DNA of 64,000 bases. Source: an uncultured Nitrososphaerales archaeon. GTDB taxonomy: Archaea > Thermoproteota > Nitrososphaeria > Nitrososphaerales > Nitrososphaeraceae. The stretch spans positions 1-64,000 of the forward strand of contig CAVOHZ010000001.1 of the NCBI GenBank assembly GCA_963695855.1. Direction: 5' to 3'. The stretch's first letter is position 1, and each line of letters starts with the position of its first letter. The notes beneath the pieces are model-generated. The model was not told the origin of the DNA, searched no databases, and worked only from the letters and a program-made list of their open reading frames with translations. Of the stretch, positions 5,480 to 19,103 are shown piece by piece. The position numbers were made by a program, and so were the translations under genes.

Positions 5480-5966
5480 TTATCAATTATATAATAATGA
5501 GAACGATTGGTTAAACGAGTTATGCAACAAACCAGTAATGGGAGGTTTTCTTATATTCATCTGTTATGCCATGATTTTTGAGATAAATATATAGAACTTA
5601 TTCATCATTACAGCAATATCCACAAGAATCTTGTTCGTTTCAGAAGTTTTCACAATTCGATCTGATTAAAGTACTTTGTTTCATTTTCTTGTTTTATTAC
5701 TCTTTGAATAAATAAACTTTTCAGGAAAAATATTGAAGAATCATAACTTAGAATGAAATGATATCCTTATCATAAAACATAGGGATTATTGCGATTATTT
5801 TAAGTAATAATAGCTGTGCATGAGTTAGAGTGAATTGATCGGAAGAAAAGCAATAATTCAACATACTTCTCTAAAATATATATCATGCTTACTCGCATAT
5901 TAAATTGATTCAATTTATAATTATCTTAATGACAATGAAAAATATTAGTAGTAGTCGACAAAAAAA

Positions 5967-8864
5967 TTAGGATGGATTTTGCTGTTCCTCTGTCAGTTTG
6001 GTTTTCCACTCCTCAGGGAGGTTTTGAACCCAACCATCGTAAACAATAGGTATAGGTAGTACACCCATTCCTCCTGTACCAGGCAATGCAGTAACTTTGT
6101 CGTCTACCTGAGTTTCTGGAGAACCTACTAGAACAATTCGTCCTGCTACTTTTGCGTCACTTGGATCACCGTCATTGTTGGGATCTCCATCAACTATTAC
6201 TAGGTCATTTGAAAATGAACTAGAGACATATGCATAATATCCCCCGTCTTTCTTTGCACCAAAGTTTACTCCATGACATCCTGCACTACATGCTAAATCT
6301 TTGACCAATTCATCGGTTTCTGTATCAATTATTGTTATTGTAGCACTTCCTGTGTTAGCTGTCACCATGTACTGTCCATCTGGGCTAACTGGAGTTTGTA
6401 TTGGTAGGAAACCAATCGGTCCACTAATGTTTCCGGAAATAGGATCATAATTCTCCAGTAAGTTTATTTTCTTGATCAATGTACCATTGACAGTATCTAC
6501 TACACTTACCGTACTATCAAAGAAGTCTGCAACATATGATTTGCTTCCATCTGGGGTCATTCCTACAGCAATAGGACTATGACCTGTCTTTACTTTTCCA
6601 ACAATTTTGTCTTCCATCATGTCGTATATCGTCGCAGTACCGGTAAACTCGTCAGGTGTTACCATGTAACGACCATCTCCACTCATCCAATGTCCATGTG
6701 GATGAGATGGATCTTGTCCAGGAAATTGCATCGGTATAACTTTTTTTATTGATTCGCCTTTTGGACCAAGTACAGCAACTCCTTGTTCTCCATGTAATAC
6801 TATCATAAGTTCATCTGTTTTTGTACTTGTCATTACATGTGATGGATCATCTCCTACCTCAATGTTTTTGACAAGTTTTCCAGTGCTTCTATCAAATATA
6901 GATGTCTTATTATCAAACCATTGTGTTGCATATATCAAATTTTGATCCCTATCTGTCCACATGTTATGAGCATTGTTCATATTTATCTCTGGCAGGGCAA
7001 CTTTTTTTGTTATCTCCCATGTAGTAGCATTGACTGCACTTGCAGTACCGGGTTTTGTCTTGCTTGCTGTCTTTTCAAATTGGGTATCTATCCAAACTTC
7101 TCCTATTCCAGGAATATCTGGATTATTTACCTTATCTAAGGTCAAATTCTGACCGTATCTGCTTTCTAGAGTATCCTTTAGGTTCACGACTGTTCCATTA
7201 GTTATCCTTACGTCTACGTCAGGGTAAGATATTTGCCACGGTTTAGATGATGATGAAGTATAGTCCTGCCAATTGTTTGTAGCAGTAATTGTAAAGAATG
7301 TCTTTAAGAGTCTTGTAGCAAGGTCGCTGCTTGTTGGTACTGTAATACCGTTTATCAACGTAATCTCATCTCCAAGATCTAAACCCTCGGTAGAAGGATC
7401 ATCGGCTATAACAGCACCTAACATAAACGGATGTAATTTACAACCAAATACATATAGTCCTGCCTTGTCAAGTTTTACTATGCCTCCACCTGCATATGCT
7501 GTAACCTCGTCAAACGGCATGTTCATGGCACCTTTGGGATAGACAAAACTCGTAACCGTATGCACACCACTTACATCTGACATCATGAAATTGACGCTGC
7601 CTGTTTTGTTAATAACTGCAAGAGATTTTGTTCCTGTATTTGTTATATCTCCTGCTAGATTAGTAAACCATTTAGCAGGCTGATCTGTCAGTTCAAAGGC
7701 TGCAAAGTTCTTGTATGGTGAAGCACCAGGTTCACTTGGTAAATTTATAGTTGGATCTCCTGATACAACTTTAAATCCTCCCATCATTCCAGCTTCCATA
7801 TGTGCAAATACATGACAATGATATTGCCACGGTCCTGGTCCCACTCCCTCTCCTACATCAATTACAAATGAATGAGTTTTACCTGGAAGTATCTGTTTTA
7901 CATCTATTATATTGTTTGTTCCAGGGTCTACCCATCTATGTGCATGAAGATGGAAAGTGTGTTGATGTCCTATTGGATTTCCTGCATGACCTACTGCTAA
8001 AACATGGAAATTTATTTTTTGTTCTACTACTCCAACTATACTGGGATTTGTCCACAATGGAATCTGTTTATAATTATTTTTATTATCAATTTCCATACCC
8101 CAAAATGTGGAGCCAACCATGAATAGGAGTACATCTTTATCTATCTTGTTAAGAGGTAATTCTTGAATCTCACCTTTTATCAGACCTGTAGTAACATTAT
8201 TCTTTGGATTCACAATTACTGCTCCAAATAGACCATTCTCTCCAGCTTTACTATCATCTACATATAGAAAAGTTCCTGGTTGAGATGCTAGAAATTCTTC
8301 ACTAGTTATAAGGTTGCCATCCTTGTCTTTAATATTTACCTTCACATAATCACCTTCATTAAAAACTAATGTTGGACCAGGAATAGTAGCCAATTTGCTG
8401 TATTTAGGCGTCAAATCTATGTTATTACTACTACTAGTAACATCAGATGAAGAAGCACCGTTGCTTTTAACATGGCTGATCATTTTATAAGCTGGTTGTC
8501 CAGTTGGTAAAGTTATAACTACCATCTCAATCTTGTGCATAGCATTATTGCTAGTTGTATTATTAGTTGATGACGAAGAGGTATTACCTTCAGATGATGA
8601 AGATATAGACGTTAAAGTGTGAAATACTTCTTTTTTGTCATCTTTTATTTTTTCATTATGTATTTTCAATGAGTCACTATTATCTTGTTTTGATATTTGT
8701 GATTGTTTTTGTTCTTGTTCTGCATAAGATATATCAATAGAAGAAAGATTTGCAGAGATAGGAGTAGTAACTATTACAACTGTTATAAGGGCAGTTAGGA
8801 AAGTCTTATAGGATATTGCAGCAGATTTAGAATTAAATTTTTTATTTGTATTTCTGATTATCAT
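5967..8864 (-). CDS. Exported multidomain copper protein: two-domain multicopper-oxidase module, extra plastocyanin-like domain and YVTN-type beta-propeller
   Basis: Likely start MIIRN at 8864 followed by a hydrophobic signal/TM segment. HQHTFHLHAHRW and WQYHCHVFAHMEAGM (T1 plus T2/T3 ligands); HTVTS...GCKLHPFM (second T1 site); repeated propeller blades such as VKTGHSPIAVGMTPDGSKSYVADFFDSTVSVVD. Confidence 0.88.
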   Translation of the reverse strand: MIIRNTNKKFNSKSAAISYKTFLTALITVVIVTTPISANLSSIDISYAEQEQKQSQISKQDNSDSLKIHNEKIKDDKKEVFHTLTSISSSSEGNTSSSSTNNTTSNNAMHKIEMVVITLPTGQPAYKMISHVKSNGASSSDVTSSSNNIDLTPKYSKLATIPGPTLVFNEGDYVKVNIKDKDGNLITSEEFLASQPGTFLYVDDSKAGENGLFGAVIVNPKNNVTTGLIKGEIQELPLNKIDKDVLLFMVGSTFWGMEIDNKNNYKQIPLWTNPSIVGVVEQKINFHVLAVGHAGNPIGHQHTFHLHAHRWVDPGTNNIIDVKQILPGKTHSFVIDVGEGVGPGPWQYHCHVFAHMEAGMMGGFKVVSGDPTINLPSEPGASPYKNFAAFELTDQPAKWFTNLAGDITNTGTKSLAVINKTGSVNFMMSDVSGVHTVTSFVYPKGAMNMPFDEVTAYAGGGIVKLDKAGLYVFGCKLHPFMLGAVIADDPSTEGLDLGDEITLINGITVPTSSDLATRLLKTFFTITATNNWQDYTSSSSKPWQISYPDVDVRITNGTVVNLKDTLESRYGQNLTLDKVNNPDIPGIGEVWIDTQFEKTASKTKPGTASAVNATTWEITKKVALPEINMNNAHNMWTDRDQNLIYATQWFDNKTSIFDRSTGKLVKNIEVGDDPSHVMTSTKTDELMIVLHGEQGVAVLGPKGESIKKVIPMQFPGQDPSHPHGHWMSGDGRYMVTPDEFTGTATIYDMMEDKIVGKVKTGHSPIAVGMTPDGSKSYVADFFDSTVSVVDTVNGTLIKKINLLENYDPISGNISGPIGFLPIQTPVSPDGQYMVTANTGSATITIIDTETDELVKDLACSAGCHGVNFGAKKDGGYYAYVSSSFSNDLVIVDGDPNNDGDPSDAKVAGRIVLVGSPETQVDDKVTALPGTGGMGVLPIPIVYDGWVQNLPEEWKTKLTEEQQNPS

Positions 8865-8868
8865 TGCC

Positions 8869-9987
8869 TTATTTACCTCCTCCAACAAATGATATTTCTC
8901 CATCATTATCGTTACCATTATCTTGTATCTCTGGTGATGCACCAGGAATACTGGAAATACTATTAGCAGCAGTATCATTGCCTGCAACTACTTCAAATTT
9001 TCCTTTCATACCCGAAAGTAAGTGTATAGGCATTTTATCATAATATGAAGTACTTTTATCAGCATTAATAGTAAATACATGGTTTTCTAGTGGTCCAATA
9101 TTCTTCGAACTGGTTGTTTTATTAGTGCCAGGTTTTAGCCATTCATAACCATCAAGAACAAAATGATGAAAATCGGTACCAACTGATTGAATATGGAATC
9201 TAACTAAATCATTTTTTGATGCCACTAGTGTAGGATTTACCCATAATGGTGTATGTTTTTTGTTACTTGTATTGTCTATCTCTACACCCCAAAATGCATC
9301 ATCGGTGATAAATAAAACAAAATCTTTCTTTATATCTTGTATATCTACCTCTTTAGGTATTCCATTTACCAAAGCATTTACTTTGCCATTGGCAGGATTA
9401 ACTATTACGGTAGAGAAGAGTCCATTAGTTTCTACACCATTCACATGTGTTCCAGATGGATTTTTTCCAAATGTGTGATCATGCCAAGGCCATGATCCTC
9501 TGGTTCCATCTGCAGCAGTCCATACATATGTATATGATTTTTGAGGAGTTGCTGCTTGATCTGTGATTTTATTTATCATTTTTAATGTACCATCACTTGT
9601 AATCTTATAATGAACGCCATGTGTATGAAGACTTACTGCTCCACGACCTATCTCATTAACTAACGTCAATCTTGCAGCATCACCTTCTGTCATGACTAAT
9701 GTGGGACCAGGTATTGTTGGTAGTTTACTGTATCTTGACGTAATATCTTGTGTCCGATTTTCTTCATCAATTATCTTGTATTCTAACATTTTATATGCTT
9801 GATGTCCATCTGGCAATTCTATCGCAGCCATCTTTATCTCATGAAGTTTATTAGAAAAATGAATATCTTCTCCTTGACTTTCTGGTTCTGCTAGGGCATA
9901 TTCTGTCAAATTTGCCAAATAAGATTGACTCAGACCTATCATTGAAATAATATAGGCTGTCAATAACAATCTTTGTGAATTTAACAT
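8869..9987 (-). CDS. Exported two-domain small-laccase-like protein with an intact domain-1 and a degenerate domain-2 copper motif set
   Basis: Signal peptide; IPGPTL, SLHTHGVHYKITSDGT, WPWHDH...NGLF. C-terminal domain lacks HxH and HCH. Confidence 0.88.
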   Translation of the reverse strand: MLNSQRLLLTAYIISMIGLSQSYLANLTEYALAEPESQGEDIHFSNKLHEIKMAAIELPDGHQAYKMLEYKIIDEENRTQDITSRYSKLPTIPGPTLVMTEGDAARLTLVNEIGRGAVSLHTHGVHYKITSDGTLKMINKITDQAATPQKSYTYVWTAADGTRGSWPWHDHTFGKNPSGTHVNGVETNGLFSTVIVNPANGKVNALVNGIPKEVDIQDIKKDFVLFITDDAFWGVEIDNTSNKKHTPLWVNPTLVASKNDLVRFHIQSVGTDFHHFVLDGYEWLKPGTNKTTSSKNIGPLENHVFTINADKSTSYYDKMPIHLLSGMKGKFEVVAGNDTAANSISSIPGASPEIQDNGNDNDGEISFVGGGK

Positions 9988-10540
9988 ATTTTATTAAATC
10001 TTAATTTAACGATAAACTATTTAATTTCTATGTTTCTTTTGTAATTAATTGTAATTATATGTTTACACGGTAATTATAGTATTCATTTCGTGAGTAAAAT
10101 CATTAGAGTACCAGCTAATTACCTAATCCTTCTTATTACCAGCTAGTTTGTAACATGATTTGTTGAGCAAAAGTCAAAAATAAATGCACTACCACACGTT
10201 AATTCAGTCTAAAATTTTAAATACGTGACCTATGTTACCATTCAAAGAATGGAGAAATCTTGACATAAGTTTCGCAAAAATGTATATGATAATAATGCCA
10301 ATTACAAATGCATATTCAACTGAAGAAAGAATAAAGGTAGTTTTCATTATAAAAGAACTATACTCACTAACAAAAATTCATTTAGATATTCTTTCCGATG
10401 AAAAATGTTTGATATCCTTGGAAGTTGATATTTTGCATGTTTACAGAATACAGGATATTTAGCTAGCCTCCATAGATAAATATCGGATTGATGTTGATAT
10501 ACAATGATAATTCAAACGAGGGAAATTAGTTTTCAGACTA

Positions 10541-11083
10541 TTATTTTTGAAATCTAAATGTTAATATAAATTCGGATATTTCTATATCTATTCGTTTATT
10601 AAATACTTTATTAAAAATTTGCTCTAAAATTTTTTTATGATATATCGACCAATTTAATCCCATATCATGTTTTAGGACACATTTAAACTGATCATCTTCT
10701 TGAGCACTATTAAACTCTACAAAAGATCTTTTCATTCTGTTTTCAAGCCATATTAAAAAGGAATCAGTGTCTAAACCCATTTTCATAAAAAAAGAAATGT
10801 CTTGAATGATATTCTTCCCAAAATTGGCCACTAAATAAGATATTTCATCTTCTGACATCAGATTAAATAAACTCCTTATTACTGAGTTGGCCATTGGTAT
10901 CATATCTATTTTAGGCTCATATCTATCCCATTCTGCATATCTTTTTAGGATTTTATTAATAAGGGCATTTAGTGTTATATCTTGAGTATCTGACTCTGTC
11001 TGTAGAGATGTAAAAGTTTCGTTATCTATTCTCAAAGTAAATGTACTTGTTTTTGTCTTAATTTGCGAAGAACGATCCGTCAT
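10541..11083 (-). CDS. Putative transcription regulator with an N-terminal ribbon-helix-helix
   Basis: STFTLRIDNETFTSLQTESDTQDITLNALINKILKRYAEWD; paralog of the next gene. Confidence 0.75.
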   Translation of the reverse strand: MTDRSSQIKTKTSTFTLRIDNETFTSLQTESDTQDITLNALINKILKRYAEWDRYEPKIDMIPMANSVIRSLFNLMSEDEISYLVANFGKNIIQDISFFMKMGLDTDSFLIWLENRMKRSFVEFNSAQEDDQFKCVLKHDMGLNWSIYHKKILEQIFNKVFNKRIDIEISEFILTFRFQK

Positions 11084-11175: not shown

Positions 11176-11706
11176 TTATTCATAAAATTCAAATGAAATT
11201 AGTCGATTATTATATCTGATTTCCACTGGCTTTTTATAATTTTCTTTAGCAAGTAATTCAAAGATCTTTTTATGGTAAAGTGACCAATTCTCTCCCATAT
11301 TATGTTTTATTATGAAAGTATGTTTTTTATTGTCTTTTCTATCATTAATTTCAATGGATGTATTCTTCATTCTCTTTTCAAACCATCTCACAAATGATTC
11401 CCAATCATTCTTTTTATTCATAAATAAAGAAGCATCTTCTAGTTCATATCTCCCAACTTTAGTAGCTAACTCGACAACTTCTTCTTTAGTTCGACCGTCA
11501 AAAAGTTTCTCTAACAGAACTTTTGGAATCGGCATCATGCCTACTTTAGGTTCGTACACATCCCATTCAACATACCTTTTCAGAATTTTATTAATGAGAT
11601 TACTAGTAGTCAGTTGTTCTCTTTCTCCTTCCTTTCTAATTGTTTCTAAAATGTTATTTTCTATCCTAAACGTAATAGGTTTTGCTTTTTTTACTGCAGG
11701 TTTCAT
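11176..11706 (-). CDS. Putative transcription regulator with an N-terminal ribbon-helix-helix
   Basis: PITFRIENNILETIRKEGEREQLTTSNLINKILKRYVEWD; shares KHxMGxNWSxYHKKI with 10541-11083. Confidence 0.75.
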   Translation of the reverse strand: MKPAVKKAKPITFRIENNILETIRKEGEREQLTTSNLINKILKRYVEWDVYEPKVGMMPIPKVLLEKLFDGRTKEEVVELATKVGRYELEDASLFMNKKNDWESFVRWFEKRMKNTSIEINDRKDNKKHTFIIKHNMGENWSLYHKKIFELLAKENYKKPVEIRYNNRLISFEFYE

Positions 11707-18059: not shown

Positions 18060-19103
18060 GTGTATAAAGAATTATTGTCATATAAGAGTCTATTTCAGTC
18101 CCTTCTTGTCTTTATATTTATGATATTGATACTTTATCAGACAGCAGCAGGATTTTTTCAACAGGAACAGCGAAAAGAAATTTACGCTGTTGCTCAACAG
18201 GATAATAATAGTGGTAATAATTTTGTAGATAAAAAAGAAGCATTTAACCCTACCAAGAAAATAAAAATAGTTTTGGAAGATACTGAAATAGAAATAGCAC
18301 CAGGAAAGAAAATTAAAACGTGGGCTTTTAATGGCACAGTACCTGGACCTCCTTTGAGATTTACCGAAGGAGAAAACGTGAGCATTTTATTTGTAAATAA
18401 AGGATTGTATCCACACACTATGCACTTTCATGGAATACATGATGATAAAAATGATGGTGCATCGCCTTTTATAAATCCGGGAAAATCTTATACATATAAT
18501 TTAACTGCAGAACCTGCCGGTGCATTAATGTATCATTGTCATGTCCCCCCAGTTTCCGAACACATTAGAATGGGAATGTATGGAGCTTTAATTATCGATC
18601 CTAAAGATAAGCCATTAAAACCTGCTAAAGAGTATTACATGGTTTCAAGTGAATTTAGTACTGATGAAAAAAATGTTACCAAATTTCTAGCAGATTATTA
18701 TCCTATAAATGGATATGCTTATCAATATATGAGTCATCCGCTTGAAATAAACCAAGGGGATACACTCAGACTCTATATTGTTAATGAGGGAATTACTATA
18801 CCTGTCTCTATCCATTTACATAGCTCAATTTTTGATGTATATCCGTCAGGACTACTCTCCAACGAACCTTATCAAGCTCAGTCAATTGCTGTAGCTCCTG
18901 GCGATGCCACAATTGTAGAAGCAAAATGGAGATATCCTGGCAACTATATGTTCCATAGTCATGGATTACAAGAAGAACATGGAAATATGGGACATATAAT
19001 AGTCAAAGACAACGCTACCAAATTGACAAATAGTGTTTCAATGTTTGATTGGCAGTACAAGCTACAGAATGAATTACAGAAAGAAGAAATTACAGAAAAA
19101 TGA
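18060..19103 (+). CDS. Two-domain multicopper oxidase with the T1 site in domain 1 (type C-like)
   Basis: N-terminal TM; WAFNGTVPGP, HTMHFHG, YHCHVPPVSEHIRMGM; domain 2 HLHSS and MFHSHG. Confidence 0.88.
   Translation: MYKELLSYKSLFQSLLVFIFMILILYQTAAGFFQQEQRKEIYAVAQQDNNSGNNFVDKKEAFNPTKKIKIVLEDTEIEIAPGKKIKTWAFNGTVPGPPLRFTEGENVSILFVNKGLYPHTMHFHGIHDDKNDGASPFINPGKSYTYNLTAEPAGALMYHCHVPPVSEHIRMGMYGALIIDPKDKPLKPAKEYYMVSSEFSTDEKNVTKFLADYYPINGYAYQYMSHPLEINQGDTLRLYIVNEGITIPVSIHLHSSIFDVYPSGLLSNEPYQAQSIAVAPGDATIVEAKWRYPGNYMFHSHGLQEEHGNMGHIIVKDNATKLTNSVSMFDWQYKLQNELQKEEITEK

Follow-up and report, generated by a model that had tools for sequence, protein, structure and literature searches.

Two-domain multicopper oxidases (MCOs) of type B assemble as trimers in which domain 1 of one chain is set against domain 2 of the next: the trinuclear (T2/T3) copper cluster is bound by four histidines from each of these domains, and a type 1 (T1) cysteine flanked by two domain-2 histidines provides the electron path. 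Ceruloplasmin, a ring of six cupredoxins, has its trinuclear cluster at a single inter-domain interface. The names MCO1 to MCO4 are said to originate from Kerou et al. 2016. For Nmar_1354 (MCO4, PDB 9CCK) of Nitrosopumilus maritimus, the accessible part of PMC11761707 reports O2 consumption with NH2OH, a cluster located where two units meet and, 13.5 Å away from the T1 site of the MCO, a dangling T1 cupredoxin. Here we describe a pair of adjacent genes, A and B, in a stretch of 64,000 nt (the whole of which is termed the window below) of contig CAVOHZ010000001.1, assembly GCA_963695855.1, from an uncultured Nitrososphaerales archaeon. Both encode a two-domain core of this kind, and each has retained a different half of the eight cluster histidines. 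We propose, with a probability of about three in four, that A and B assemble as different subunits into a single exported multicopper oxidase, which would be an obligate heteromer.

Both genes are encoded on the minus strand, as are all features within them given below. Gene A (P0002, 8869..9987) is an open reading frame (ORF) of 372 codons, the product of which shows a hydrophobic N-terminal segment followed by a two-cupredoxin body like that of the small laccase SLAC. Gene B (P0001, 5967..8864), an ORF of 965 codons, is multidomain, with the order: hydrophobic N-terminus, Ser/Thr/Asn-rich linker, short histidine-free domain 1, complete domain 2, putative T1 cupredoxin, helical linker and seven-bladed propeller. 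The stop codon of A (8869-8871) and the ATG of B (8864-8862) are separated by a spacer of 4 nt (8865..8868), in agreement with the initial annotation, and a GGAGGAGG run is located inside the 3' end of gene A directly before this spacer. A longer, TTG-started frame of B (to 8987) would overlap gene A; the ATG at 8864 is taken as the start of B because it matches the N-termini of the homologues. The hydrophobic N-terminal segments (residues ~7-24 of A and ~21-36 of B) are consistent with export or anchoring of both proteins. A and B are each other's paralogs (E 4.9e-30 with 41% identity for A against the B frame, well outside what chance would give), and all the motifs that had been quoted for a shared scaffold are present in the translations, namely HEIKMAAIELPDGHQAYKM in A and HKIEMVVITLPTGQPAYKM in B, YSKLPTIPGPTLV and YSKLATIPGPTLV, NGLF, and PLWVNP and PLWTNP. 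The same is true of the ligand-region motifs SLHTHG, WHDH, HHFVLDGYEW, YYDKMPIH, PGTFLYVDDS, HTFHLHAHRW and YHCHVFAHMEAGM.

The only Pfam family matched by A is Cu-oxidase_3 (E 1e-11, 45.4 bits, cut-off 21). In HMMER searches its residues 90-196 align to the small laccase 3t9w (E 2.5e-13), with SLHTHG placed on slhphg and WPWHDH on whyhdh, and its residues 252-300 align to the same protein with FHHFVLDGYEW on fhtfhlhghrw. By this alignment both domain-1 HxH motifs are retained in A and the domain-2 HxH is replaced. The first HxH, H121 and H123 of SLHTHG (9619..9627), and the second, H169 and H171 of WHDH (9475..9483), are invariant in a 30-sequence alignment and in 80/80 bacterial A-like genes, and the former also lies in the modelled interface with B described below. 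Domain 2, by contrast with this, preserves remnants: in the one corresponding to HxxHxH (FHHFVLDGYEW, 9139..9171) the T1 histidine H274 is kept and the cluster histidines are replaced by V277 and D279, and in the one corresponding to HCH...H...M (Y316 D317 K318 ... H322 ... M327, 9007..9042) both cluster histidines and the T1 cysteine are lost, with Y-D-K of A standing at the H-C-H columns of B in a joint alignment of the two proteins. In sum, A possesses four of the eight cluster histidines, all from domain 1, and has no T1 site, the cysteine being replaced by D317.

The two-domain MCO part of B is confined to residues ~108-378, where Cu-oxidase_2 passes its Pfam cut-off (22.5 bits) and Cu-oxidase_3 stays below its own (16.2 bits, cut-off 21). 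Domain 1 (residues ~108-222, 8199..8543) is shortened, aligns to 3t9w through TIPGPTLV only, and has a gap or a residue other than histidine at the four domain-1 ligand columns. Residues 289-373, on the other side, align well to 3t9w (HMMER, E 1.1e-16), with HTFHLHAHRW on htfhlhghrw and YHCHVFAHMEAGM on yhchvqnhsdmgm. Domain 2 accordingly shows both of its ligand motifs: HxxHxH (7944..7961) with H302 for T1 and H305 and H307 for the cluster, and HCH...H...M (H349 C350 H351 H355 M360, 7785..7820) with two cluster histidines and the Cys, His and Met of T1. Both are invariant in a 36-sequence alignment and in 75/75 bacterial rows, and H305, H307 and H351 are found in the modelled interface. Thus, B contributes the other four of the eight cluster histidines, all from domain 2, which brings A and B together to eight of eight, and it has a complete domain-2 T1 site (H302, C350, H355, M360). 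The 3t9w alignment and the joint ligand table thereby bear out what had been read from the two translations, i.e. that A keeps the domain-1 ligands without the domain-2 HxH and HCH, and that B combines a short, histidine-free domain 1 with a complete domain 2. The description of B as a small laccase held for its MCO core, which is SLAC-like, but not for the entire 965-residue protein, to which a putative T1 cupredoxin and a propeller are added. An AlphaFold2 (AF2) model of the whole of B (predicted local distance difference test, pLDDT, 80; predicted TM-score 0.80) shows beta-sandwiches in the MCO part.

The same genome has a second pair on another contig (L009:3518-8910; C10:517518-522910), encoding A' of 382 and B' of 1413 residues; it is 48% identical to A and shows the same reciprocal ligand pattern. 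The tail of B', ~350 residues in length, is Gln-rich with PQQQ repeats. Across the archaeal family to which the genome belongs, A is found in 25 of 121 sampled genomes, including all 13 other genomes of its own genus and representing eight of 18 genera. B is the next gene on the same strand in 27 of the 29 archaeal A loci, and the other two are contig ends. The four domain-1 histidines occur in each of the 28 A rows covering domain 1, and no domain-2 cluster histidine or T1 cysteine is seen in any of the 28 covering domain 2; conversely, domain 2 is complete in all 32 B rows that cover it and none has a domain-1 histidine. One A row and one B row of this archaeal table come from an unpublished genome (G035), and the result is the same without them.

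A search over one genome per species recovered 329 stretches encoding relatives of A, from which 78 loci (L038-L115) were kept. Nearly all of these are titled Nitrosomonas, Nitrosospira, Nitrosovibrio or beta-/proteobacterial metagenome-assembled genomes (MAGs), with one Nitrososphaera and one 'Nitrospirae bacterium' MAG among them. In 76 of the 78, A is succeeded on its own strand by a B-like gene of ~900-980 codons that shows the three-part architecture of B, and the remaining two end directly after A; in a few loci A or B is broken into two frames. Ligands were tabulated for 80 A-like and 75 B-like genes from the named Nitrosomonas, Nitrosospira and Nitrosovibrio records: every A-like gene has the four domain-1 histidines, 79 of 80 have no domain-2 cluster histidine (the other has a single one) and none has the T1 cysteine, and every B-like gene has a complete domain 2 with at most one of the four domain-1 histidines (43/75 have one). 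The reciprocal ligand pattern is conserved, and the pairing strict, across archaea and bacteria. Hence, the pair and its reciprocal loss, which the initial annotation had seen in one genome, extend well beyond it (28/28 and 32/32 archaeal, 80/80 and 75/75 bacterial rows), and the pair is common in betaproteobacterial ammonia oxidizers outside the Nitrososphaerota. In these archaeal and bacterial loci A and B were not found to occur independently, the exceptions to the order A-then-B being four contig ends.

Several further features of these loci may be recorded. Two of the bacterial loci (L088 and L095) have two A-B pairs in tandem each. The only recurrent neighbor in the 78 loci is a LuxR-type response regulator (~240 residues), the gene of which precedes A in the same orientation in 43 of them; no chaperone, cytochrome or third subunit recurs at these 78 loci. 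The A-like gene of the 'Nitrospirae bacterium' MAG (L115) sits at a contig end and is, in the tree, a close neighbor of the sequences from Nitrosomonas marina and a Burkholderiales MAG, and the contig may be misbinned rather than carry a Nitrospira gene. With regard to the degenerate domain 2 of A, the archaeal versions display His, Asp, His and Met at the old T1 positions (residues 274, 317, 322 and 327), with Asp at the Cys column in 28/28 rows. The second histidine of the old T1 site is not kept in bacterial A. Since the His-Asp-His-Met set is confined to archaeal A, a mononuclear site conserved throughout A was considered and rejected; the archaeal versions may still have a leftover one.

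Relatives with an undivided core provide a natural comparison. A profile-free exhaustive search with A returned 263 relatives at E <=0.001, among them three chains, P0249 (978 aa), P0255 (1049 aa) and P0258 (1112 aa), that combine both halves, the cupredoxin and the propeller. A search of 401 genomes of the class with P0258 located such unsplit genes in 14 loci (L116-L129) of a sister family of the same order; they encode chains of 878-1255 residues (L129 is incomplete) with all four ligand motifs. No A-like ORF is present in the ~1.5 kb flanks of these 14 loci, and in five of five genomes bearing an unsplit gene (all 99% complete) nothing matches A strongly apart from that gene. The occurrence of A follows the type of core: a complete core is found without A, a core with a histidine-free domain 1 always with A, and proteins with no core without A, a pattern that is as complementation predicts. 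The last category comprises genes of ~640 codons in other genera of the family and order (L137-L142), which encode only the T1 cupredoxin and propeller, 58-62% identical to the C-terminal part of B, with no MCO domains and no A gene nearby; these forms indicate that the propeller module is able to exist without the oxidase core.

A different arrangement is seen in P0260 (722 aa), from a metagenome, in which an A-like and a B-like module, the latter lacking the propeller, are separated by a Thr-rich stretch that contains a membrane segment and then by a signal-like segment. A metagenome scan identified relatives only 31-42% identical to it, at seven loci. P0260 could be a true fusion or two adjacent genes called as one, and is excluded from the evidence; it may represent an independent split, since both of its modules lie on long branches outside the main clade.

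In a quick IQ-TREE analysis of 80 MCO cores over 307 columns, the A and B versions form one clade each (26 rows and SH-aLRT 99 in either case), both uniting archaea and bacteria, and the inner branching of the two clades is mirrored. In both, the bacterial sequences are placed beside the pair of one Nitrososphaera record. The mirrored trees with this same placement suggest that A and B were transferred together between the archaeal and the bacterial ammonia oxidizers; given that the closest unsplit relatives belong to archaea, an origin of the pair there is the simpler assumption. B is sister to an unsplit clade of a second family (SH-aLRT 95), and further unsplit forms lie at an unresolved base, all inside a group supported at 99. 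Forcing A and B into one clade is not rejected by the approximately unbiased test (p-AU 0.307, for a group that was named after the tree was seen), and a simple tandem duplication with reciprocal loss is possible.

The A/B complex was modeled from residues 44-352 of A and 105-385 of B, with an own alignment for each, in three runs next to three controls. The interface score ipSAE reached 0.88, 0.88 and 0.89 versus 0.01 for the best control, with a partner pLDDT of 89 or higher, and 95% or more of the contacts recurred between the runs. The pass mark used is reached by 116/157 solved complexes and 2/215 mismatched pairs, rates that are approximate here as own alignments were used. The confident interface comprises residues 121, 123-124 and 166 of A and residues 305 and 307-308 (HxH) and 351-357 (the HCH region) of B: of two possible interfaces, the model picks the one joining both ligand halves, domain 1 of A and domain 2 of B. 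Thus, the earlier proposal that neither chain alone builds the T2/T3 cluster, and that this interface supplies all eight histidines, gains support from the invariant halves, the strict pairing, the unsplit forms without A and the heterodimer model. From these we infer physical assembly and copper loading of A and B.

An alternative is that A and B act separately. B would then have no O2-reducing cluster; it would work through its two T1 sites and the propeller, as an electron-transfer or catalytic protein that relies on an external acceptor. A, for its part, would be an unrelated copper-binding protein, and the two would be neighbors by virtue of their duplication. The cupredoxin-propeller genes without an MCO part in other genera speak for such an option, and adjacent genes often do not bind each other. 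It nevertheless offers no reason for the invariance of the histidine halves across two domains of life (75/75 and 32/32 for B, 80/80 and 28/28 for A), for the strict pairing set against unsplit forms that have no A, or for a model that sets the halves face to face, and we consider it improbable.

We regard it as similarly improbable that A is non-catalytic, either as a filler of the trimer ring or as a copper-delivery or maturation factor for B, with its domain-1 histidines binding copper transiently or as a smaller site. The loss of the T1 site and of the C-terminal domains is as often seen in pseudo-enzyme subunits, and four histidines alone could hold one or two coppers. Yet B needs four more histidines, of which its own domain 1 offers at most one, and those retained by A are exactly the canonical cluster ligands, with H121 and H123 placed in the modeled interface with H305, H307 and H351 of B. 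Less probable still are homo-oligomers A3 and B3 with novel partial copper sites, i.e. two independent specializations: the solved two-domain MCOs described in the accessible parts of PMC11761707 and PMC13151041 are trimers of one gene product, but this option leaves unexplained why B with its histidine-free domain 1 is never without A, why complete forms lack A, and why the A and B trees are mirrored.

If A and B are indeed subunits of one oxidase, its core would follow the plan of SLAC and other trimeric two-domain laccases of type B, with A giving the four domain-1 histidines and B the four domain-2 histidines along with the adjacent T1 site and its Cys-His link. As each chain has kept one half, a complete cluster would form only where domain 1 of A meets domain 2 of B. 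A three-membered ring, be it A2B or AB2, would then have a complete cluster at one interface only, an orphan half-site at another and an empty third interface.

The remainder of B supplies candidates for the upstream steps. Its domain 3 (residues ~385-510, 7335..7712) appears to be a small cupredoxin, modeled as a beta-sandwich, with a T1-type set (H435, C475, H478 and M481) that is invariant in 103/103 sequences of the C-terminal part of B, an alignment in which archaeal and bacterial sequences of the split, the unsplit and the MCO-less form are represented. The stretch has no Pfam match, and its matches to pseudoazurin and amicyanin are weak and not significant (E 0.2-1.4; pseudoazurin E 0.21). 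A partly helical linker follows (residues ~511-575, 7140..7334; helices 514-526 and 562-570 by DSSP of the AF2 model) and leads to a seven-bladed propeller of the YVTN/lactonase type (residues ~576-965, 5970..7139; AF2 pLDDT 95.5). The propeller scores above the cut-offs of PF10282 (Lactonase; 29.6 bits, cut-off 21.7) and TIGR02276 (51.9 bits, cut-off 27.85) and matches 1l0q both in sequence (E 5e-29) and structure (Z 38.1, rmsd 2.1, 296 aligned residues). Among the same 103 sequences, H676, H723, H725, C863 and H864 are conserved in all, C859 and Q823 in 102 and H633 in 101, and in the secondary structure of the model these His, Cys and Gln residues are positioned at the start of the innermost strands of successive blades. 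Judged by this conservation, the chances of a metal site at the propeller hub seem to us evenly balanced.

Foldseek and structure searches with the propeller recovered generic seven-bladed folds only, because of which its function is not assignable from the fold: N2O reductase (NosZ), thiocyanate dehydrogenase and selenium-binding protein were all considered and set aside as being no closer than WD40 proteins. B is likewise no NosZ, clade III L-NosZ included, by its match to NF052460, which attains 51.7 bits against a cut-off of 700 and involves propeller repeats only. In the proposed enzyme, the substrate would be oxidized at a His-rich metal site in the propeller hub, and the electrons would pass from the T1 site of domain 3 to that of domain 2, on to the shared cluster and finally to O2. 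The dangling T1 cupredoxin of Nmar_1354 presents a precedent for such a relay of two T1 sites in B. That the substrate is a nitrogen intermediate is a doubtful guess at this stage. Equally speculative is the broader picture of a respiratory-type oxidase of ammonia oxidizers, encoded by a two-gene unit exchanged between Nitrososphaeraceae and Nitrosomonadaceae, in which a His/Cys copper center of the propeller, of a kind not described before, would oxidize NH2OH, NO or another small reductant and pass the electrons via two T1 sites to one shared cluster.

Published transcriptomes point to strong expression of what appear to be relatives of the pair. According to the accessible part of PMC12448741, two adjacent 'MCO3' genes of Nitrosocosmicus franklandianus, NFRAN_2029 and NFRAN_2030, are among the most upregulated in biofilm. 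The first, with an MCO domain and a beta-propeller arCOG, shows a log2 fold change of 3.16 (14073 transcripts per million, TPM, in biofilm and 2296 in the control; TPM rank 5), and the second, with an MCO domain, one of 3.17 (9353 and 1514 TPM; rank 9). The same portion of that paper marks both as exclusive to ammonia-oxidizing archaea and makes no mention of divided ligands for them. We infer that NFRAN_2029 is the orthologue of B and NFRAN_2030 that of A; P0210 (945 aa), an MCO-domain protein with the source name Ca. Nitrosocosmicus franklandus, shares 58% identity with B. Within the window, contigs of four rhizosphere metatranscriptome runs from two studies cover A and B, and the junction of the two genes is bridged by contigs of three runs of one study (X7 to X9; 8733-9337, 8484-8935 and 8677-8953). 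These RNA contigs give no cover at 5900-6040 and 9989-10100, which is not evidence for transcript ends.

Against the proposal of a heteromeric oxidase several points have to be weighed. As the solved homotrimeric small laccases resemble the A/B pair, the pass of the complex model may reflect likeness to them and not binding, and a heterodimer model of A and B cannot tell a heteromer apart from homomers. Since three positions do not divide 1:1 between two chains, any A/B ring would have an orphan half-site, for which the proposal offers no reason. The free tree puts B beside the unsplit clade and not beside A. For the propeller, NosZ (Z 30.2) and thiocyanate dehydrogenase (Z 28.9) do not rank above WD40 proteins, and the argument for a putative metal site is one from conservation. 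The orthology of NFRAN_2029 and NFRAN_2030 is drawn from annotation and adjacency, not from their sequences, and the bridging contigs show presence in RNA libraries and cannot prove a single transcript.

The neighborhood of the pair in the window consists of transposases and small ribbon-helix-helix-like proteins. Directly downstream of B are two DDE transposase genes (PF01609, PF13737; 3698-4498 and 4679-5479, plus strand), which may be related to the presence of two copies of the pair in the genome. Upstream of A, two paralogous proteins of 176-180 residues (10541-11083 and 11176-11706, minus strand) have a weakly CopG/ribbon-helix-helix-like N-terminus (E 0.0026) and could be regulators. 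A separate two-domain MCO of 347 residues is encoded at 18060-19103 (plus strand) with a full ligand set in another arrangement, domain 1 showing HTMHFHG and YHCH and domain 2 IHLHS and FHSH; two genes similar to it are present elsewhere in the same genome (L007, L008).

If the chains share one cluster, the pair would be the first multicopper oxidase with its catalytic cluster split over two gene products. No two-domain oxidase with cluster ligands divided in this way, and no description of the A/B pair in ammonia-oxidizing bacteria, was found in the literature searched, outside the scope of which many subscription papers fell, and the sole 'heterotrimer' described there was the proteolyzed Nmar_1354; the accessible part of PMC7785015 has no passage on MCO2, MCO3 or trinuclear sites. 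The proposal, if true, would further supply a natural example of the proposed step from homotrimeric two-domain to six-domain one-cluster enzymes, and if the respiratory-type picture were also to hold, the pair would be a living intermediate that links homotrimeric two-domain oxidases to enzymes of the ceruloplasmin type. Its occurrence in soil ammonia-oxidizing archaea and in many Nitrosomonas and Nitrosospira makes it more than a one-genome curiosity, and it comes with a propeller in which a putative His/Cys site is invariant. It is a candidate for the unexplained copper-dependent redox chemistry in nitrifiers. The published treatment of the two genes as duplicate copies of a single oxidase type and as members of archaea-exclusive families (PMC12448741, accessible part) would need revision on both points.

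Comparison with the known systems brings out both the common and the distinct features of the pair. The small laccases (SLAC, 3cg8, and 3t9w) are the best PDB sequence matches for A as well as B, and like the pair they have two cupredoxins, a domain-2 T1 site, the HxH/HxH/HxxHxH/HCH motifs and an inter-chain cluster; however, they are homotrimers with eight histidines per chain, whereas A and B divide the eight over two genes, A being without T1 and B having a short domain 1. The unsplit relatives (P0249, P0255, P0258; L116-L129), ~40-45% identical to B where the two overlap, share the N-terminal motif, MCO core, third cupredoxin, linker and propeller, and differ from A/B in combining all four ligand motifs in one chain with no A gene; they are presumably ordinary homotrimers.

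Nmar_1354, the nearest characterized counterpart for the added cupredoxin, resembles B as a two-domain MCO with a C-terminal T1 cupredoxin (putative in B), and Foldseek relates the whole-B model to 9cck_A (E 1.9e-13), although B and Nmar_1354 match only weakly in sequence (E 7e-4). Unlike the pair, it is one gene with complete ligands and no propeller, and its 'heterotrimer' results, in the accessible part of PMC11761707, from proteolysis of one chain, in contrast to the two genes of A/B. The domains of N2O reductase (with its CuZ center) and thiocyanate dehydrogenase, a seven-bladed propeller and a cupredoxin, are also combined in B, which has conserved histidines on the innermost strands; there is nonetheless no specific similarity, and both the domain order and the direction of electron flow, to O2, would differ in B. 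Among the six-domain MCOs, A matches the A domains of factor V (E 2e-11), which like those of factor VIII are poor in copper, and B matches ceruloplasmin (E 1.7e-4). As in ceruloplasmin, an A/B ring would contain one cluster instead of three. Ceruloplasmin and factors V and VIII are single chains that arose by triplication, whereas in A/B the asymmetry would come from separate chains.

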